This document shows positions 355 through 8,199 of a DNA stretch of 12,895 nucleotides, in pieces. Position 1 is the stretch's first letter; every line of letters starts with the position of its first letter. This DNA is from a virus, in the UHGV virus genome UHGV-0182645; one strand, 5' to 3'. Under the pieces are notes generated by a model. The model ran no database searches. It was not told where the DNA came from and worked only from the letters and a program-made list of their open reading frames with translations. A program made the position numbers and the translations under genes.

Positions 355-459
355 AATACTGACTGTTGCGCCCTGACATTATCGTGGGGTATATTTCTAC
401 GGCACCTTAGAAAAACGGGTGCCGGGATTGGTCTCCCGGTAATGTCAAAGGCGACACAT

Positions 460-482
460 AGACGCCACAAGCGTCTTTTTTG
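460..482 (+). terminator. putative rho-independent terminator (stem AGACGC / GCGTCT, loop CACAA, then TTTTTTG)
   Basis: Hairpin followed directly by a T-run on the plus strand, downstream of the small-ORF cluster. Confidence 0.45.
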
Positions 483-645
483 TTGTCGGCGCACTCGCAC
501 ACCTATCAATGGTGGGCTGTGTGGTGGCTTCTTCGGAAGCGCCGGTTCCCTTTGACGCCGGTAAGACCAACTCCACACAGTCCACCGCCAGTAAGATTGG
601 TCTCTTCGGCGGTGGTATCGTTCACTGTCAAAGGAGGCTGCCAAT

Positions 646-861
646 ATGGCTACTATCCCTACCCCAACTCATTCTGAATTTATCTGGCGTTTCTATTCCT
701 GCCAAAAACACCTGTATATCTGCGTCATGGCTGCAACCGAAGCAGAAGCTCGTTCATACCTTCCTGAAGAACCCTGCATTTTTGCCGCACGCTTCACTCT
801 TGATGCGATGGAGATCCTCAATTACTGGAATCTGCCAATGAACTGCGTGGAGGTGCACTGA
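646..861 (+). CDS. hypothetical small protein, 71 aa, translationally coupled to the Rha-family gene
   Basis: AGGAGG at 632-637 lies 8 nt before ATG 646. Stop TGA 859-861 overlaps the ATG of the next gene by 1 nt. Confidence 0.5.
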   Translation: MATIPTPTHSEFIWRFYSCQKHLYICVMAATEAEARSYLPEEPCIFAARFTLDAMEILNYWNLPMNCVEVH

Positions 862-1802
862 TGAATCTGTCCATCTCTCAAAAAGCGACAATGACCAGTA
901 TTGAGATCGCGGAACTGGTAGGTAAGCGTCATGATAATGTGAAGCGTACCATTGAAGTATTAACTAAAGGTGGTGTCATTCAATTTCCTCAAATTGAGGA
1001 AATTGAAAATAAACAATCAGTTGGCCCTCGTCGATTTTCCAAGGCTTACATCTTTGAAGGCGAACAAGGAAAACGAGACAGCATTATTGTCGTCGCGCAG
1101 CTCTCTCCCGAATTCACCGCCCGGCTGGTGGACCGCTGGCGCGAACTGGAGAGTGCCAAAGTACAGTTAAAATCAAAAGCCGAAATTCTGGCTGAAATGG
1201 CGCAAATGCATCTTGAGCATGAACGCCGGATCAACGCCGTTAATGCCCAGGTAGCCGAAGTATCGGCACAAGTGTCCAAAGTCGCTGAAACCGTCGAGCA
1301 AATAAAGAAAGGCAATATGCCGGAAGGCTACATTGGCTACCGCCAGTTGGCGGCGAAATGTGGCCTGACTGAAGCCAAATGTCGCAACCTGGTTAACGCT
1401 TACCGGATTCCCACCGATACACATGAGTTTTTGACCCCCGATGGCTTGCTTGCGCGACGCTCCATTGTGGCTCTGGCCCCCTTCCGGAAAGCCTTCAAGC
1501 AGGTTATGTCGGAGGCAGAACCACGCAACAAACGCTGGTATCATCCCAAGATGGGGCTGTTTCAGGCAATCCATCATCCTTTACCGGAAATCCCAAAAGA
1601 TAATCTGTCACTGCATACCGCCAGAGAGAAGATCAGAAGTGGATATGCAACGGTATGCCGTCGCGCCTCATGGTCTGAAGGTGTATGGGTATGGCCCGAA
1701 GGCGGATCAAGGAAGCACTGGCGCACTATCCGGGATGGGAAAATCCATGCTATTGATTTAGCGCCAGAGGATATGGTTGCTATGGACTGGATTGTTAGTT
1801 AA
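861..1802 (+). CDS. phage regulatory protein, Rha family (antirepressor-like), 313 aa
   Basis: GGAGG at 849-853 lies 7 nt before ATG 861. The N-terminal segment TMTSIEIAELVGKRHDNVKRTIEVL matches the conserved Rha-domain signature (IAE..GK.H.NV.R.I) as I recall it; not search-verified. Confidence 0.7.
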   Translation: MNLSISQKATMTSIEIAELVGKRHDNVKRTIEVLTKGGVIQFPQIEEIENKQSVGPRRFSKAYIFEGEQGKRDSIIVVAQLSPEFTARLVDRWRELESAKVQLKSKAEILAEMAQMHLEHERRINAVNAQVAEVSAQVSKVAETVEQIKKGNMPEGYIGYRQLAAKCGLTEAKCRNLVNAYRIPTDTHEFLTPDGLLARRSIVALAPFRKAFKQVMSEAEPRNKRWYHPKMGLFQAIHHPLPEIPKDNLSLHTAREKIRSGYATVCRRASWSEGVWVWPEGGSRKHWRTIRDGKIHAIDLAPEDMVAMDWIVS

Positions 1803-1810
1803 TTACTGTT

Positions 1811-1838
1811 GCCCCGGCCAGGTCGGGGCTTTAATTTA
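1811..1838 (+). terminator. putative intrinsic terminator between convergent genes (stem GCCCCG / CGGGGC, then TTTAATTTA)
   Basis: GC-rich hairpin 9 nt after the Rha stop, followed by a T-rich tract on the plus strand. Sits between the convergent stops at 1802 and 1839. Confidence 0.4.
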
Positions 1839-2714
1839 CTAGTCCTGCTGACAATTCAGGAACATAAACGCACGTTTGTCCGTTAAATCCGTAACATAAT
1901 ATTCACGAATACCATTCGGTTTTATGCGGCGAGCATACACAAACTTATGAACTGGCTGGTCGCTGCCATAACTAACCTCAGTGCGAAATTCATCGACCGT
2001 GCTACCATCCTTTTCTGTCTCTTTGCGTATCAGCTTATTGTTCAGAACTGGTTGAGTCTCATCCATTCCGCTAAATGCATCTTGCCCGGTACTATTACCC
2101 CGGTTGCCACGTGGTAAATCCCACGAGAAATAAGTCCCATAGTCTGTAATTACCTGATCCCACGCCCCGGCTTCATCCATATAATGACTACGCTTCCCTT
2201 GGTATGTTACGTCAACCTTACAGGAAAACGTTGGCGCGCTATTACTTGCAGCAGAGGCCGTTGAAGATTGTGTAACACTGCCATTGTTGGCATTTCCATA
2301 GTTCCAGCCATCATGCAACGCTTTAACCCACAGATTAGTCAGGGATAGCGTAACATCATTCCCCAGCGCCTGGCTGATTCGAAGCCTCTGTATCCGACGC
2401 AACCCATACTCATAGGCTTCATCGTCATTAATCACTCGCCCACGTTGAGCGGCTACCACCCCAGATTGCCACGCACGATTAATTTCACGAATAAGATACA
2501 CTTGTGGATCAACTCCGTATCTGTTGTATTCATAGTAAAGGCTCATTGCGCCATGTTGGCTCTGGTATTCATTAGCCCATGATATAACCGCGTTTCTTCC
2601 ATAATCCGCGAGCGCAGAATGACTTGACAGAAGAAGAGCAACGCCAACAGTCTTCAGTAATTTGAATCGGAATAACTTTTTAATAATACGATTGGGAAAT
2701 ATGTTTTTGCTCAC
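1839..2714 (-). CDS. secreted or periplasmic protein of unknown function, 291 aa, with predicted N-terminal signal peptide; moron-like accessory gene
   Basis: 876-nt ORF starting at GTG with GAAAGG about 9 nt upstream. N-terminus has a basic n-region (KNIFPNRIIKKLFRFKLLK), a hydrophobic core (TVGVALLLSS) and an AxA-type cleavage motif (SALA/DYG). AT-rich upstream region at 2715-2830. No family recognised. Confidence 0.6.
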   Translation of the reverse strand: MSKNIFPNRIIKKLFRFKLLKTVGVALLLSSHSALADYGRNAVISWANEYQSQHGAMSLYYEYNRYGVDPQVYLIREINRAWQSGVVAAQRGRVINDDEAYEYGLRRIQRLRISQALGNDVTLSLTNLWVKALHDGWNYGNANNGSVTQSSTASAASNSAPTFSCKVDVTYQGKRSHYMDEAGAWDQVITDYGTYFSWDLPRGNRGNSTGQDAFSGMDETQPVLNNKLIRKETEKDGSTVDEFRTEVSYGSDQPVHKFVYARRIKPNGIREYYVTDLTDKRAFMFLNCQQD

Positions 2715-2943
2715 TTTTCAACCTTTCACCACAAATCAAGACTAACAACCCAATAATAATAACTAACCACTCTGTTTTTTTGATAAGCACCAAATCGTTT
2801 ACAAAAAAAATAGCAAATGACTATTGACACTATTCTGGAAATCACAAACTGCACATAATCCATCGCGCTAACGGCTCCCGTTGAAGGTTCTTTTGACGAT
2901 TAACTTTCAGCCGAAGCGCGGTAGGGAGTCATAACGCCAAAGC

Positions 2944-2968
2944 AGGCCGCCATGTGCGGCCTTTTTTT
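2944..2968 (+). terminator. strong rho-independent terminator (stem AGGCCGC / GCGGCCT, loop CATGT, then T7)
   Basis: Perfect GC-rich hairpin followed by TTTTTTT on the plus strand. No plus-strand protein gene lies upstream of it; see findings. Confidence 0.6.
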
Positions 2969-2995
2969 GTATCCGTCATCCGTGGAGGAAGGACA

Positions 2996-3649
2996 ATGGA
3001 AAAGATCGCAATATTCAGCCTGACCACCAGCAAGCCTCAAATGCTCACTGCAATACTGAAAGACGGTGCTCTCATTATTAACGAAGTAAAACCCCTTCCC
3101 GCGTCAGCATTGGAGCAAAAGCAAAAAATTCCTCCAGCTATAGCAGCCCTGCGGAAAAGCAAATTTAAGGTACTGGTAGACGAAATTACGCCAACGATCT
3201 CCGCTGGCACCGGAGCAAGTCAGGTGACTCTCAAGACCCGTCATGCCGATGGTAGAGCAGCAATCATCGTCGGGATGGAAAGATACAGAGAGTTAAAACT
3301 CCAGAAACTATTATCCCTGCCGCAAAATAACAAAGGTGCTTTCGAAATCCCCGACTCTATCGTTGATACCGAATACAATGGTAACGGAGAAGAAGTCTAC
3401 CGGGTGAACTGGCAGGACATCAGGCCGGAACATATTCTTATGATCCTGTGTTGCTACGCGACCGTATACCACAACGTTGCCAGTGCGGATTACGTAGAGC
3501 AGATGACCGGCGCAGTCGAGAAAGAGCAAAAAACAGGCATACTCGCTTCGTTCCTGTCCATTATTGGGCATGAAAAAGTTGAAGCAGGCACCTCCCAGCC
3601 AAAGTCACTGGCTGGGAAAGAAGTTGATGAAGATACCGTGATACTTTGA
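2996..3649 (+). CDS. hypothetical protein, 217 aa
   Basis: GGAGGA at 2984-2989 lies 6 nt before ATG 2996. The track ORF begins at 2954, but that ATG sits in the loop of the terminator hairpin, so I prefer 2996. No family recognised. Confidence 0.65.
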   Translation: MEKIAIFSLTTSKPQMLTAILKDGALIINEVKPLPASALEQKQKIPPAIAALRKSKFKVLVDEITPTISAGTGASQVTLKTRHADGRAAIIVGMERYRELKLQKLLSLPQNNKGAFEIPDSIVDTEYNGNGEEVYRVNWQDIRPEHILMILCCYATVYHNVASADYVEQMTGAVEKEQKTGILASFLSIIGHEKVEAGTSQPKSLAGKEVDEDTVIL

Positions 3650-3977
3650 TCACATTAGTAGCTTTGTTAACTCCCTCAATACCAGGTAGAAGAGTAACAA
3701 AAATATTGACGCCAGTATTTGCGTGGTCAATGAAGCGTTCATAAACAGATCAATTAGCATTAATAATTCGAATATAACATCCATGTCATTCACTCCGTTT
3801 AATTTTTAATCTAATGCCAGCAAATGAAGCTGGCCCCCGCACAAAGATTAATGAAAGTCACTTGTCACCAGTGAGGGGATTTATGAACCACATCCCCCTG
3901 AACTGGTGGCCTGTCTGTTTCTCACATTTCACACCCTGCATACAGTTTCCCCCAGGTTATGACTGAGAGGCTTTGTT

Positions 3978-4307
3978 ATGGGCTATAGCAGACTCGACGA
4001 CAGGTACATTGAAGACGATATTTTTCGTGCGCTGTTTCACCAGGAAATGATTAAGCGGGTATCGGAGTATCACTCTGATAATTTCCAGTACACGATAAAG
4101 ATTGATGAAGTATATCGTTCAGACCTTGCAGCCTACAGGGCGTATGGCAATGCAGATTTGCGCTGGGTATTCCGGGTGCTGGTGGGCCATGAGTCAGAAA
4201 TGGAAGAAATGCCCGCCGGGACCACGTTAACTCTTCCTGATGTGGCATGGCTGAGGAACAAGATCCGTGATTACGCGAGCGCGGAACCGGAGATAGAAAA
4301 TGCCTGA
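3978..4307 (+). CDS. small protein with C-terminal LysM-like / phage tail protein X-like segment (tentative), 109 aa
   Basis: GAGAGG at 3965-3970 lies 7 nt before ATG 3978. The C-terminal stretch YRAYGNADLRWVFRVLVGHESEMEEMPAGTTLTLPDVAWL resembles the P2 gpX pattern (..YYG....VL.....P.GT.V.LPDV) from memory. Its stop overlaps the next start. Confidence 0.55.
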   Translation: MGYSRLDDRYIEDDIFRALFHQEMIKRVSEYHSDNFQYTIKIDEVYRSDLAAYRAYGNADLRWVFRVLVGHESEMEEMPAGTTLTLPDVAWLRNKIRDYASAEPEIENA

Positions 4308-5493
4308 TTTCCTGAAAAACCAGGACGGGCGCTATATCACTGACGGCCTGTCCTCTAAGGACTTCACGCGTTTATTCGACCTTATCAGGAAAGAACAAAC
4401 CCGTAAGCGCCGACAAGCTCACCGGACGCTGACGCCAGGTAGACTGAGGAACAAATCCGCCGAAGATATTCTCAAGTTAGGGAAGAAAAAAGGCGGCACG
4501 TTCTTCACGCGAGACGACCTGAAAGGTTTCGAAAAGCTACGGAGTAAAACACGCGAAAAATATGACAGCAAGACGGCTGGCATCACATACGCCCAGCTGG
4601 TGGCATCCAGCCAGGCAATCGATATTAAGCGTGCAAATAACGCCGTGGATGACGGATCTGGTATCAAAAGAGCTACACCCGTATCTCTTCGCCACAACGT
4701 GATTAATATCCGCGTAGAAGCATCGGATATATCCGTCCACCAGCACCATATCGTCCGGATACGCTTTGAAGAATGGGATCAGATGGTCGATGACATCGCA
4801 GAAGACGATAAATCAGCTCTGAAAATCACTAAATCACTGTGCGCTGGGCGGGTGTCTTTCGATTGTGACTGTGGTCGTCATCAATACTGGTATCGTTACA
4901 TCGCTACTGCGGGTAACTTTGCCCTGGCCCCGCCAAAAGAATACGCCTATCCAAAAGTTCGTAACCCTAAGCTACAAGGCGTCGCCTGTAAACACGTGAT
5001 CCACTCAATGACGCGGTTACAGTCCGCTAGTTGGCAAATGAGTATTGCTCGTGCGTTACAAAAGGCCGCAACGCAAATTGCATTTGGTGACGATCGCCGC
5101 CGTACAACCAAACACTTCTCAAAAGAAGACGAGAGGGAGTTTAATCGCAATCGCAACAGTAAAACAAACGTTGACGCTGCCAAGCGCGAATGGAGGCTCT
5201 ATCAGAAGCGCCAGGCAGCTTTAAGTACAAAACTGGCAAAGGACAACGGCAAGATCGACAAGCTACGTGACCAATTGACCAGGGCCAGAAAGTTGTCAGA
5301 CGCACAGAAAAAACGGGCGGCTGCAAAAGAAGCGGCCTTGCAACGTGAGAAACAGAAAAACAAGGAGCTTCAGCAACGCCTTGCCGATCAGTTCGCACTG
5401 AAGAAGCAAGCGTTCATTGATGCGCTTGTCATGGCTGGAACGCCACAAGAACAGGCTGAGAAGATGTTTATAGAGTACGTGAAAAAAGCATAA
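4300..5493 (+). CDS. 397-aa protein with a CxC...CxH (SWIM-like) putative zinc-binding motif and a highly charged C-terminal coiled-coil-like tail; function unknown
   Basis: ATG 4300 overlaps the upstream stop (ATGCCTGA). Motif FDCDCGRHQYW...GVACKHVIH. The last ~100 aa are K/R/E/Q/A-rich with heptad-like periodicity. Confidence 0.7.
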   Translation: MPDFLKNQDGRYITDGLSSKDFTRLFDLIRKEQTRKRRQAHRTLTPGRLRNKSAEDILKLGKKKGGTFFTRDDLKGFEKLRSKTREKYDSKTAGITYAQLVASSQAIDIKRANNAVDDGSGIKRATPVSLRHNVINIRVEASDISVHQHHIVRIRFEEWDQMVDDIAEDDKSALKITKSLCAGRVSFDCDCGRHQYWYRYIATAGNFALAPPKEYAYPKVRNPKLQGVACKHVIHSMTRLQSASWQMSIARALQKAATQIAFGDDRRRTTKHFSKEDEREFNRNRNSKTNVDAAKREWRLYQKRQAALSTKLAKDNGKIDKLRDQLTRARKLSDAQKKRAAAKEAALQREKQKNKELQQRLADQFALKKQAFIDALVMAGTPQEQAEKMFIEYVKKA

Positions 5494-5526
5494 ACCACAC
5501 ATAGCCTAGTAGTTTATGCTGGGCTT

Positions 5527-6255
5527 TCATTTTTTTGAAAGATCAATTCCAGTATTATCAAACAAACTGGAAATATCAGACACCAATTTATTAAAATGCT
5601 TGTCATCATTATAGAATGATGTGCTTTTTATAGCGACTATAAAATCACATAAATCTTGCGGAGATTCAATGCTAACCCCCTTATTTTTATATAGCTCAAT
5701 AATACTGCCAACATCAGTATGCAATAGTTTTATCGCGCCACAAATTTCTCGCTGTTTCGCAACTAGGTCATTAAGTTTATTTTCATTTTCATCTAAGATT
5801 TGTTTTGAATATTTAGCGTCATTGGTTGCTTGATTTAACTTTGTTTTCTTTCTTTGCAATTCTATTCTTTTATCATAATCAGCAACTTCATCTAAATATC
5901 TTATTTCAGTGTATAATTTACTTGTTAGCTTAGATATCTTCAGTGTGAGAATAGGAGCTAACACAGATGCAAATACTCCATAAACAAATGGGATTACAAC
6001 GTGATAAACCCACGGGGATACAATCCAATTATCAAAGAACGGGACATTGCCACCAACAAAAACAATAGATAATGTATATAGGATGTCGTCCTTTGACTTT
6101 AATATAATTAAAATATCCTTCCAGTTAAAAATTAGAAAAGAAATGACAACATATGCAAAAACCTTGTTAAATATTTTATCTTTTATTATTTCAGAAAATG
6201 ATTTTAGTTCTGTTTCATTTATAGACGGATTATCTGTAACTTTTTCTGACATCAT
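5527..6255 (-). CDS. AT-rich membrane protein, 242 aa: two predicted TM segments, a coiled-coil segment and a C-terminal domain; candidate exclusion or abortive-infection effector
   Basis: AGGAT lies 6 nt before ATG 6255. Hydrophobic segments VFAYVVISFLIFNWKDILIIL and VVIPFVYGVFASVLAPILTL, then a charged heptad-like stretch (RIELQRKKTKLNQATNDAKYSKQILDENENKLNDLVAKQ). Hand-counted G+C in sampled 60-nt stretches is about 23-32%, against about 50% in flanking genes. Confidence 0.65.
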   Translation of the reverse strand: MMSEKVTDNPSINETELKSFSEIIKDKIFNKVFAYVVISFLIFNWKDILIILKSKDDILYTLSIVFVGGNVPFFDNWIVSPWVYHVVIPFVYGVFASVLAPILTLKISKLTSKLYTEIRYLDEVADYDKRIELQRKKTKLNQATNDAKYSKQILDENENKLNDLVAKQREICGAIKLLHTDVGSIIELYKNKGVSIESPQDLCDFIVAIKSTSFYNDDKHFNKLVSDISSLFDNTGIDLSKK

Positions 6256-6276
6256 AGCTTATCCTGATTACTTTTA

Positions 6277-6477
6277 TTATGGATAGTTAAAAGATTCAAC
6301 AGGTGATGGTGGCTGAATTGGGTAATGTTTCTTCTCGTACTCCTCAATGAGAAGACTCATAACCTCAAAGAAATCACCTTCCGGAGTATTCATTTCCGGT
6401 TCGTTATCGAACATCGGTTCGACCGCACGCAGTGCGGCCTCATAATCTTGTTCTGTACGGATAGGTTTAATGTTCAT
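6277..6477 (-). CDS. orphan 66-aa ORF resembling only the N-terminal (non-HTH) part of a longer HigA-type antitoxin; possible gene remnant or small partner of the adjacent membrane protein
   Basis: Sequence MNIKPIRTEQDYEAALRAVEPMFDNEPEMNTPEGDFFEVMSLLIEEYEKKHYPIQPP fits the N-terminal consensus I recall for that antitoxin family (..EYE.AL..I..L.D....PEGD..E.L..LIE.YE..HYPI). The ORF stops where the HTH would start. No clear SD; it starts 12 nt after a terminator hairpin. Confidence 0.4.
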   Translation of the reverse strand: MNIKPIRTEQDYEAALRAVEPMFDNEPEMNTPEGDFFEVMSLLIEEYEKKHYPIQPPSPVESFNYP

Positions 6478-6489
6478 TAATTACAAAGG

Positions 6490-6516
6490 AAAGCCCACTT
6501 GCTAAGTGGGCTTTTT
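6490..6516. terminator. bidirectional-capable intrinsic terminator (10-bp stem AAAGCCCACT / AGTGGGCTTT, loop TGCTA)
   Basis: Perfect 10-bp stem. Followed on the plus strand by TTGTATGTGTTTT and on the minus strand by CCUUUGU. Sits 18 nt past the higA stop. Confidence 0.5.
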
Positions 6517-6533
6517 GTATGTGTTTTACTATA

Positions 6534-6872
6534 TCAGGCTGCTTTTTTATTCAGGTTCCGCTGAGAAATAAATTTTTCAGCAGTATTGATACGACTTAAC
6601 TCTTCCTGAACGCGCATATCATTTTCGACTTCCCACAGATCTACTGCGGTCTGAAGATTAATCCAAAAATCTACAGAAGTATCGAATGCTTTTGCCAGGC
6701 GATATGCCATATCCATCGTTAGCTTACGATTATTATTAACAAGAGCACTTACGGTGTTACGATGAACATGAAGTATTTCTGCTAACTCGTTGATCTTCAG
6801 CTCTAACGGCTCCAGGTATTCGTACAGAAGGATATCACCTACGGTCGTCGGTTTTCTGGTTGCCTGTTTCAT
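6534..6872 (-). CDS. higA: HigA-type antitoxin, XRE-family HTH, 112 aa
   Basis: AAGGG lies about 7 nt before ATG 6872. The protein shows the HigA pattern (PGDIL..EYLEPL...INELAEIL.V....VS.L.N....LT.DMA.RL...F..S..FW.NLQ) and lies immediately downstream of the HigB-like toxin gene. Confidence 0.85.
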   Translation of the reverse strand: MKQATRKPTTVGDILLYEYLEPLELKINELAEILHVHRNTVSALVNNNRKLTMDMAYRLAKAFDTSVDFWINLQTAVDLWEVENDMRVQEELSRINTAEKFISQRNLNKKAA

Positions 6873-6942
6873 TTTTTGCCCTTACTAGCGTGCGTATTAA
6901 GTGGACTCTGGTCAGAACCCGGACCGTAACCGGGAATCTGTT

Positions 6943-7245
6943 TTAGTATTTGTGAGGGTCGAGATACAAGTCCTCGGCCTTTCCGTTAACCCACTTAAAA
7001 ATTAACCTATATTGCTTATTCACCCTTACTGATGAATAGCCATTTAGCTTCCCTGACAGTTCCTCATACCGATTACCTGGTGGTGATCTTAAATCCTTAC
7101 AGGTAGTTGCGGCATTGATAATGTCCAACTTCCGTGACAATGTCATATGAATATCAGGAGGTATCTTTCTATGTGGTGTTGAAAATTCAAAAAAATCATC
7201 AAGCCACGCATCCCTGAAATCCTTTATGTTAATTTTTTTGGTCAT
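6943..7245 (-). CDS. higB: HigB-type toxin (RelE/ParE superfamily, killer-protein family), 100 aa
   Basis: C-terminal signature YEELSGKLNGYSSVRVNKQYRLIFKWVNGKAEDLYLDPHKY matches the HigB killer-protein motif (W/YR..F.F.NGDA..L.Y.DYH) from memory. Toxin-first order with the HTH antitoxin downstream. Confidence 0.85.
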   Translation of the reverse strand: MTKKINIKDFRDAWLDDFFEFSTPHRKIPPDIHMTLSRKLDIINAATTCKDLRSPPGNRYEELSGKLNGYSSVRVNKQYRLIFKWVNGKAEDLYLDPHKY

Positions 7246-7284
7246 TAGTCATTTGATCCTCCGTGATGATTACCGAATGCCATA

Positions 7285-7318
7285 ACTATAGCGCACTGTT
7301 GCACTGTGCGCAAGTGCA
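7285..7318 (-). promoter_or_regulatory. putative higBA promoter with overlapping operator-like repeats (-10 TATAGT; GCACTGT x2 plus inverted GTGCA)
   Basis: On the minus strand, TATAGT (plus coords 7285-7290) sits about 40 nt upstream of the higB ATG. Immediately upstream is GCACTGT-T-GCACTGT-GCGCAA-GTGCA (7293-7318), a typical arrangement for autoregulated TA operators. The -35 is weak (TTGCGC). Confidence 0.35.
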
Positions 7319-7407
7319 TTTTATGGATTCCCCCTCCTTCATCCAAAATCACAATCTCCCGAAAATCTTCCTTTCGATACCTGACAGATCGACCTTTGAG
7401 GATGCTT

Positions 7408-8199
7408 ATGGGCCGTTTTGACGAATGGTTTGCTGACGATGCAAACCTGGCAAGTAAGGAGTCAGAACATGACAGCACGCAGAGAGAAACGCCAGCGCCG
7501 ATTGAAGCGAATGCAGGAGGTGCGCCGGAACATGGCAATACCGGTTCGGATTCATTCAGCATTCTGGAAGAGCAACCCGCCGCCAAAGCTGATAGCCATG
7601 ATAATTTTGCTGATAGCAACGCTGGCCTTACTCCGGATGCTGCCGAATCAGATATAGCCATACTTCCACCTTCCCTGGCTGGCAGAGAACCAACTCCACA
7701 GCTAAAAGCACGCTATAACGGGCATAAAGCCTTTAATGACCAAATCCGCGCAGACTGGATGCTGATTATTGAATCCAGCCCAGACGCGTTTCAGGCTCTC
7801 TTATATCGACCAGATGTTGGCACATATGGGGTAGTCAGCGACGAAACAGGAGAAGAGTCATTCACTGAACTGGATAACAACCAACGCGAACTGACTTACC
7901 AGGAACCTGAAATCGTTTATGTGCTGGATAACCCTGACGGGCGTGACTCTTTCCATGCGATTGACGCAGACGGTGAGCAGGATGGCTTAACCGATGATGT
8001 TCTGATTCTGCGTATTGCAGCAAATAACGTCCCCGTCGGCTCAATTCTTGAATGGAATGAAGAGATGGTAAACGGCGTAGCCCGCCGCTGGTGGTACGTG
8101 CACCGTATTTTTAGCTACGGCACACAGCATGTTGGTTCGCTTTACTACTGCATACCTGCCAGGAATTTTGATACGACTCAAAACGGAGTGATCGAATGA
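7408..8199 (+). CDS. hypothetical protein, 263 aa, with an acidic low-complexity N-terminal half; first gene of a four-gene coupled operon
   Basis: GAGG at 7398-7401 lies 6 nt before ATG 7408. The track ORF starts at GTG 7306, but that would run through the divergent higBA promoter. Stop overlaps the next start (ATGA). Confidence 0.65.
   Translation: MGRFDEWFADDANLASKESEHDSTQRETPAPIEANAGGAPEHGNTGSDSFSILEEQPAAKADSHDNFADSNAGLTPDAAESDIAILPPSLAGREPTPQLKARYNGHKAFNDQIRADWMLIIESSPDAFQALLYRPDVGTYGVVSDETGEESFTELDNNQRELTYQEPEIVYVLDNPDGRDSFHAIDADGEQDGLTDDVLILRIAANNVPVGSILEWNEEMVNGVARRWWYVHRIFSYGTQHVGSLYYCIPARNFDTTQNGVIE

Follow-up and report, generated by a model that had tools for sequence, protein, structure and literature searches.

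The window, as we call the whole stretch of DNA analysed here (12,895 nucleotides; virus genome UHGV-0182645), is an E. coli plasmid prophage that is related to P1 and resembles phage D6. Comparison of its first 4.3 kb with phage D6 revealed 92.5% identity across 75% of that 4.3 kb, and positions 1700-3000 matched 103 E. coli plasmids and 0 chromosomes. P1/D6-like phage-plasmids are frequent in E. coli and Salmonella and serve as vehicles of resistance genes. The following features were located in the window:

402-481, plus strand: isrK-like RNA (60 bits)
505-592, plus strand: C4 antisense RNA (75 bits)
646-861, plus strand: icd, 3' of the C4 RNA
861-1802, plus strand: gene of a Rha-type antirepressor (Pfam Phage_pRha; PHROG 63, 'anti-repressor Ant')
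1811-1829, plus strand: GC-rich hairpin with a plus-strand T-tract; it terminates the icd-Rha operon and is common to the two convergent genes
1839-2714, minus strand: coding sequence of 291 aa (GTG start, TAG stop) for a predicted exported two-domain protein of the D6 gp79/PHROG 13054 family, rare 'type B' allele
1842-2234, minus strand: predicted C-terminal β-barrel domain (aa 161-291)
2235-2279, minus strand: low-complexity linker rich in S/T/A/N (aa 146-160), the junction of N-domain exchange
2280-2606, minus strand: N-terminal 'type B' domain (aa 37-145)
2607-2714, minus strand: predicted signal peptide (aa 1-36)
2715-2823, minus strand: allele-specific AT-rich 5' region with the motif AAGG (2725-2722), a weak promoter candidate and an inverted repeat
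2944-2962, plus strand: hairpin and T7 terminator in the conserved mat leader, 230 nt upstream of the start of the 291-aa ORF
2996-3649, plus strand: mat, the next plus-strand gene beyond the 291-aa ORF
after mat: homologues of P1 genes 26 and 25
farther downstream: a low-GC minus-strand gene, a HigBA module, baseplate-region genes, rdgC and a gene for a Dam-class methyltransferase

The isrK-like RNA and the C4 RNA ahead of icd and the Rha gene mark a P1-type immI region. The 291-aa ORF is placed between this immI operon (isrK/C4 RNA, icd, Rha-type antirepressor) and mat, convergent with the Rha gene and divergent from mat. The initial annotation had called a minus-strand ORF of this length between the plus-strand Rha gene and the next plus-strand gene, and this was borne out: near-identical plasmids carry the same coding sequence in the NCBI PGAP annotation, as hypothetical protein WP_236478011.1. 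A Shine-Dalgarno motif (AAGG, 2725-2722) was found 7 nt 5' of the GTG codon. The 291-aa protein has 43 identical database members, and the window allele was present in 5 of 5,426 complete E. coli genomes, annotated there as a hypothetical protein. Compared with the D6-type allele, the C-terminal domain (C-domain) showed a dN/dS of 0.03, at a pS of 0.75 with synonymous sites saturated. The C-domain alleles are thus of ancient divergence and under strong purifying selection.

The surrounding DNA was also compared with other plasmids. Positions 1-80 of the window did not align to the closest E. coli plasmid or to D6-type plasmids; alignment started at position 81. The C4 segment (481-580) had just 75% identity to a typical D6-like plasmid, and the adjoining 100-nt blocks mostly had 86-98%. 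The segment may belong to a heteroimmune immI allele that is linked to the rare gp79 allele. The Rha gene is whole in the window (313 aa); the annotation of the closest E. coli plasmid, pPSS-08-1_2, lists it as a pseudogene truncated at the C-terminus (L001, 7162-7872). The part encoding the Rha N-terminus (881-1080) was only 67-75% identical to D6-type plasmids. Farther downstream, a 242-aa ORF (5527-6255, minus strand) had a GC content of 0.28-0.31 compared with about 0.48 in its flanks. It matched PHROG 8191 (unknown function) and, weakly, coiled-coil families, has hydrophobic N-terminal segments and gave no PADLOC match. This further minus-strand accessory gene is conserved in D6 as orf73 and adjoins a toxin-antitoxin module (6277-7245, minus strand). 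The module comprises a HigB-like toxin (6943-7245, minus strand; Pfam E 4e-35), an HTH antitoxin (6534-6872) and, after the antitoxin, a 66-aa remnant (6277-6477) that NCBI annotates as a truncated HTH pseudogene. In place of this remnant, D6 carries an intact second HigA-like gene.

The signal peptide (MSKNIFPNRIIKKLFRFKLLKTVGVALLLSSHSALA, followed by DY), of the Sec/SPase I type, was assigned by feature calculation on 13 family members, in which the cleavage site is aligned. Its n-region has a charge of +6, its h-core is LKTVGVALLL (aa 20-29, KD 2.04), and A34-L-A36 directly precedes D37, placing the predicted cleavage between ALA and DY. Every family member has an equivalent signal peptide at the aligned position, with A26 and D37 conserved. 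The basic n-region, hydrophobic core and AxA motif of the Sec signal peptide proposed initially were recovered in the protein and in all homologues. A motif scan of the 291-aa protein revealed no lipobox cysteine. The mature protein would comprise 255 aa (about 29 kDa, pI 5.9, GRAVY -0.75) and has no further hydrophobic segment. It had been described as rich in Y, W, N, G and S; enrichment was found for Tyr (2.5-fold), Asn (1.8-fold) and Trp (1.6-fold), but Gly and Ser were barely raised.

Since the ORF is oriented against its neighbours, it must have its own promoter. The region upstream is AT-rich (GC 0.36), as had been noted. The promoter that it was said probably to hold fared less well: a consensus scan gave no minus-strand sigma-70 site for the ORF, and a relaxed scan gave weak candidates only, such as TTATCA-N19-TATTAT at 2786-2756. 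The P1 C1 operator consensus was absent from the window. An A/T-tract inverted repeat (2772-2786 / 2799-2813; 15-nt arms, 80% complementary, 12 nt apart) was observed 58-99 nt upstream of the ORF start, overlapping the weak promoter candidate; the repeat might serve as an operator or as a site of the H-NS type. The allele-specific cassette has at its edge (2815-2833, plus strand) the sequence AAATGACTA-N4-CACTAT, which faces mat. It reproduces exactly the -22 box of LPsit, a late promoter of P1, and a -10-like hexamer follows at equal spacing. The box is absent from the D6-type plasmid L013 and may be chance.

The gene had also been described as bracketed by hairpin terminators. Hairpins are indeed present at 1811-1829 and 2944-2962, but both are plus-strand terminators with plus-strand T-tracts. 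Neither has a U-tract on the minus strand, and no canonical minus-strand terminator was found 3' of the ORF. The second hairpin ends a stable fold in the mat leader (2860-2972, plus strand; MFE -42.1 kcal/mol, z -3.2, equalled by 0 of 200 shuffles). This leader lies inside a block (2824-3000) with 99-100% conservation among about 100 plasmids of E. coli, and it has a weak isrK-like Rfam match (E 0.7). The leader might control mat, either as an attenuator or as an sRNA.

The 291-aa protein was then modelled with AlphaFold2 on a 12-sequence alignment. The model consists of a signal-peptide helix, an all-helical N-terminal domain (N-domain; aa 38-144 in the model) with six predicted helices, a linker predicted to be disordered (aa 146-158, pLDDT < 50) and a β-rich C-domain (aa 162-290). 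Modelled alone with AlphaFold2, the C-domain reached a pLDDT of 91.2 and a pTM of 0.86. Conservation is concentrated there: 62 of the 66 invariant columns in an 11-sequence alignment fall within the C-domain. Cys165 on the first strand and Cys288 on the last strand are invariant in all relatives, and the SimB-like N-domain found in other family members has a separate invariant Cys pair. Each domain type has an invariant Cys pair, as for periplasmic disulfides, which fits the likely location of the mature protein in the oxidising periplasm. As modelled, the C-domain is a soluble barrel and no outer-membrane one, because many charged residues line its strands and it is hydrophilic overall. Its best-conserved segment is an exposed loop, FSWDLPRGNRGNSTGQDAF.

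With the full model, Foldseek found nothing below E 0.09 in the PDB. In BFVD, Foldseek matched only uncharacterised phage proteins of about 130 aa. When the PDB was searched by sequence, using profiles of the C-domain and of the N-domain, no match had an E-value under 0.1. The structural neighbours of the C-domain are listed here with the value obtained for each:

Cap15 receptor barrel: 8.1
Nitrobindin: 7.6 / 7.5
Rv0813: 7.0
Lipid-binding BT_2261: 6.8
Outer-membrane barrels: 6-7
PhiA: 6.3
PliC: 5.5
YceI: 5.3-6.0

The small soluble up-and-down β-barrels (Cap15 receptor domain, nitrobindin/THAP4, FABP-like Rv0813, YceI, PliC/MliC) resemble the C-domain in topology only, at 2-13% identity. On the basis of the model, these fold neighbours point equally to ligand binding or to enzyme inhibition. 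A periplasmic ligand-binding or carrier protein, with a calycin/FABP/nitrobindin-like barrel for a hydrophobic or cyclic small molecule, would imply lysogenic conversion without exclusion. We consider this unlikely. The identity to such barrels is low, the best-conserved element is the exposed loop rather than obvious cavity residues, and a swappable N-domain beside the immunity region suggests conflict-driven specificity, not metabolism. Enzyme inhibition would mean a PliC/MliC-like periplasmic inhibitor of peptidoglycan hydrolases, shielding the wall of the lysogen against lysozymes or against the transglycosylase that an incoming phage carries on its tail; inhibition of the latter would itself be exclusion. 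PliC is among the neighbours; the PliC/MliC motifs (S.SGA.Y and Y...TKG), the Pfam MliC domain and the Ivy motifs were all absent from the protein, and such an inhibitor seems improbable.

The initial annotation could not place the protein in any family. Here, its C-terminal half (aa 143-291) matched PHROG 13054 (unknown function) with an E-value of 5.6e-83, and BLASTP aligned 150 aa, spanning the C-domain, with residues 148-297 of gp79 from phage D6 at 75% identity. By sequence, the protein thus qualifies as a D6 gp79/PHROG 13054 family member through its predicted barrel. Pfam, NCBIfam and PADLOC gave zero matches for it. A motif scan confirmed that ADP-ribosyltransferase motifs are absent, and homology to a virion or lysis protein, named beforehand as an argument against a conversion or exclusion factor, was not found.

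An exhaustive HMMER search with a three-sequence profile over 1.84 billion representative proteins (E ≤ 0.001) returned only 11 family proteins. The weakest of them, P0018, is a repeat protein matching just a short stretch of the profile. Relatives with the same type B architecture are P0002, P0008 and P0011, and the type B N-domain is confined to these three, the window protein and a protein from a Buttiauxella island. This island was the single further locus found in a scan of 185,579 species genomes, and a further homology search with the C-domain profile added no members. Other groups are SimB-like proteins (type A), barrels that stand alone behind a signal peptide (P0013, P0016, P0017) and fusions to other N-terminal regions (P0014, membrane-anchored, and P0015). 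Export signals were present in all homologues found.

The family is nearly always carried by mobile elements. Homologues lie elsewhere in P1-like elements, after ssb/darA or a parM-like partition module, in integrase-bearing islands, in plasmid-like contigs and in one chromosomal islet. No neighbour gene was conserved across six distant homologue contexts, and a multi-gene system was rejected on this ground; the lack of a conserved neighbour fits a single-gene accessory function. At three loci (L006, L010, L035), which are accessory regions of plasmids or integrative elements, stand-alone or differently fused barrels repeatedly occur near DUF5417 genes. Tad2-like, ParE-like and StbA/ParM genes were found nearby once each among these loci.

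The C-domain was found in 59 PLSDB plasmids (49 from Escherichia and 10 from Salmonella). The window allele was present in 3 of these and the SimB-like allele in 56. In IMG/VR, all 17 loci (17/17) carry the gene between Rha and mat, with type B at 3 and type A at 14. The DNA identity of the window to a typical D6-like plasmid changes sharply along the locus:

81-1834 (immI operon through Rha): 87.5%
1848-2232 (C-domain coding): 76%
2233-2823 (signal peptide, N-domain and 5' region): none detectable
2824-8000 (mat and downstream): 98%

The C-domain matches gp79 while the N-terminal half does not, and the window gene is therefore a rare, domain-swapped allele of the gp79 gene. The relative P0003 combines a type A N-domain with a C-domain that is 90% identical to that of the window, which locates the exchange at the linker. 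The type A and type B N-domains are unrelated: BLASTP gave no N-terminal alignment between the two, and hhalign gave a probability of 0.07%. The gene is thus replaced among similar genomes, a trait of 'morons', as an allele cassette (1835-2823) between flanks of 87-98% identity. The base composition is not set apart as in the 'moron' signature, since the GC content of the ORF (0.45-0.49) equals that of its flanks (0.48-0.52). The earlier picture was upheld in its structural part: a predicted exported protein is encoded by a stand-alone gene that is directed against its neighbours, here at a variable accessory site of a temperate phage-plasmid. A variable N-domain could also be matched to toxins, if the protein gave immunity against a periplasm-acting toxin such as a colicin, another bacteriocin or a T6SS effector. 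We regard such a role as very unlikely.

The same locus is known from D6-like Salmonella plasmids, which carry a simB-like gene, called a superinfection-exclusion simB homologue, in a divergent region (PMC6799933). In a lytic-cycle role, the periplasmic protein would be a virion morphogenesis or lysis accessory instead of a factor expressed in the lysogen. The gene adjoins the morphogenesis genes mat, 26 and 25, one relative directly follows ssb/darA in the same orientation, and the LPsit-like box lies at 2815-2833, albeit on the opposite strand. Against this, the gene is transcribed against the morphogenesis genes, and no virion or lysis PHROG showed homology, PHROG 13054 being listed as 'unknown function'. 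In addition, the gene is dispensable or replaceable, as pSL26_91 has other genes in place of the simB-like gene (PMC6799933), the gp79-family gene is absent from P1, and stand-alone homologues occur in non-phage islands. We give a lytic-cycle role little credence.

Phage D6 gp79 (ASR76365.1) was annotated by its depositors as a 'putative superimmunity accessory function protein, similar to P1 simB'. It shares with the window protein the locus (Rha/pmgF/orf80 to mat), the minus strand and the order of signal peptide, N-domain, linker and β-barrel. The two differ in that the signal peptide, N-domain and 5' region show no similarity, and the window allele has no SimB-like module. Between Rha and the gene, D6 has a pmgF-like gene and orf80, both missing from the window. 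The SimB-like part of gp79 is restricted to residues 52-143, with 49% identity to P1 SimB.

P1 SimB (YP_006512.1; 111 aa) is likewise exported, its gene adjoins immI on the strand opposite c4-icd-ant, and the N-domain of the commoner allele is its homologue. The P1 annotation gives SimB a 'putative accessory function', and simB is non-essential. The window protein was rejected as a SimB homologue (BLASTP E 3.4; hhalign probability 0.07%). SimB is a single small domain translationally coupled to simC, whereas the window carries a single gene, with no simA or simC. The D6-like plasmid pYU39_89 has no simA or simC homologue either (PMC6799933). P1 SimC (Sim; 264 aa) is similar in size to the window protein, is exported with a cleaved signal peptide, is non-essential and adjoins immI. 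Neither sequence nor profile comparison linked it to the window protein (profile probabilities below 0.1%), and homology was also rejected in this case.

By analogy with these P1 proteins, we tentatively favour a superinfection-exclusion or envelope-protection role in the periplasm, while considering it short of probable; the exclusion or lysogenic-conversion factor suggested initially is thus plausible. One module of the commoner allele is known from the P1 sim operon, and P1 simABC also adjoins immI on the opposite strand. The placement of the simB homologue of D6-like Salmonella plasmids in a divergent region (PMC6799933) is consistent with this role. Furthermore, simC is a documented superinfection-exclusion gene of P1 (PMC2409434), and simABC is among eight hypervariable regions of P1-like plasmids (PMC9603915). 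Finally, a specificity factor driven by conflict would be expected to join a conserved scaffold to an exchangeable domain, as is the case here. These points are the reason for our preference.

Several observations weigh against exclusion. The window allele is without the SimB-like module, neither the C-domain nor the type B N-domain is linked to exclusion by homology, and the function of SimB itself in P1 is only putative. The PADLOC defence models gave no match. The structural neighbours are generic ligand-binding or inhibitor barrels of low identity, the consensus and relaxed scans did not find a promoter beyond the weak candidates, and a compositional 'moron' signature is lacking. In addition, some homologues are situated in ssb/darA operons or in non-phage islands.

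If the exclusion reading is correct, the stand-alone accessory gene between the immI operon and mat would be expressed in the lysogen and would yield a soluble periplasmic protein after removal of the signal peptide. In this protein, a predicted disulfide-clamped C-terminal β-barrel is linked flexibly to an exchangeable N-domain, which is SimB-like in most D6-like plasmids and has been swapped for an unrelated, predicted helical domain in the window. The protein would then protect the lysogen at the envelope by superinfection exclusion in the manner of P1 Sim. The barrel would provide the common function, for example by binding to some conserved component of the periplasm or envelope, and the N-domain would set the specificity.

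A broader reading, which we regard as doubtful, is that proteins with this barrel form a class, not described before, of modular entry-exclusion factors that act in the periplasm and are borne on phage-plasmids, plasmids and integrative islands. In such a class, the barrel would dock to the envelope and interchangeable N-domains (SimB-like, helical type B and others) would choose which phage or DNA-transfer machinery is blocked. If true, this would be the first function assigned to P1 SimB.

In summary, the gene is a rare, domain-swapped member of a phage-plasmid family that has been catalogued but not characterised. It is well defined and no surprise for specialists, and as a candidate for exclusion among P1/D6-like elements it is of moderate interest. 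An exported family with exchangeable domains beside the immunity region shows the pattern expected of an exclusion determinant under conflict. The factors that decide which P1/D6-like phage-plasmids can co-infect or displace one another are poorly known. Knowing the function of this gene would clarify the SimB/gp79 proteins and the rules of incompatibility and exclusion among phage-plasmids.
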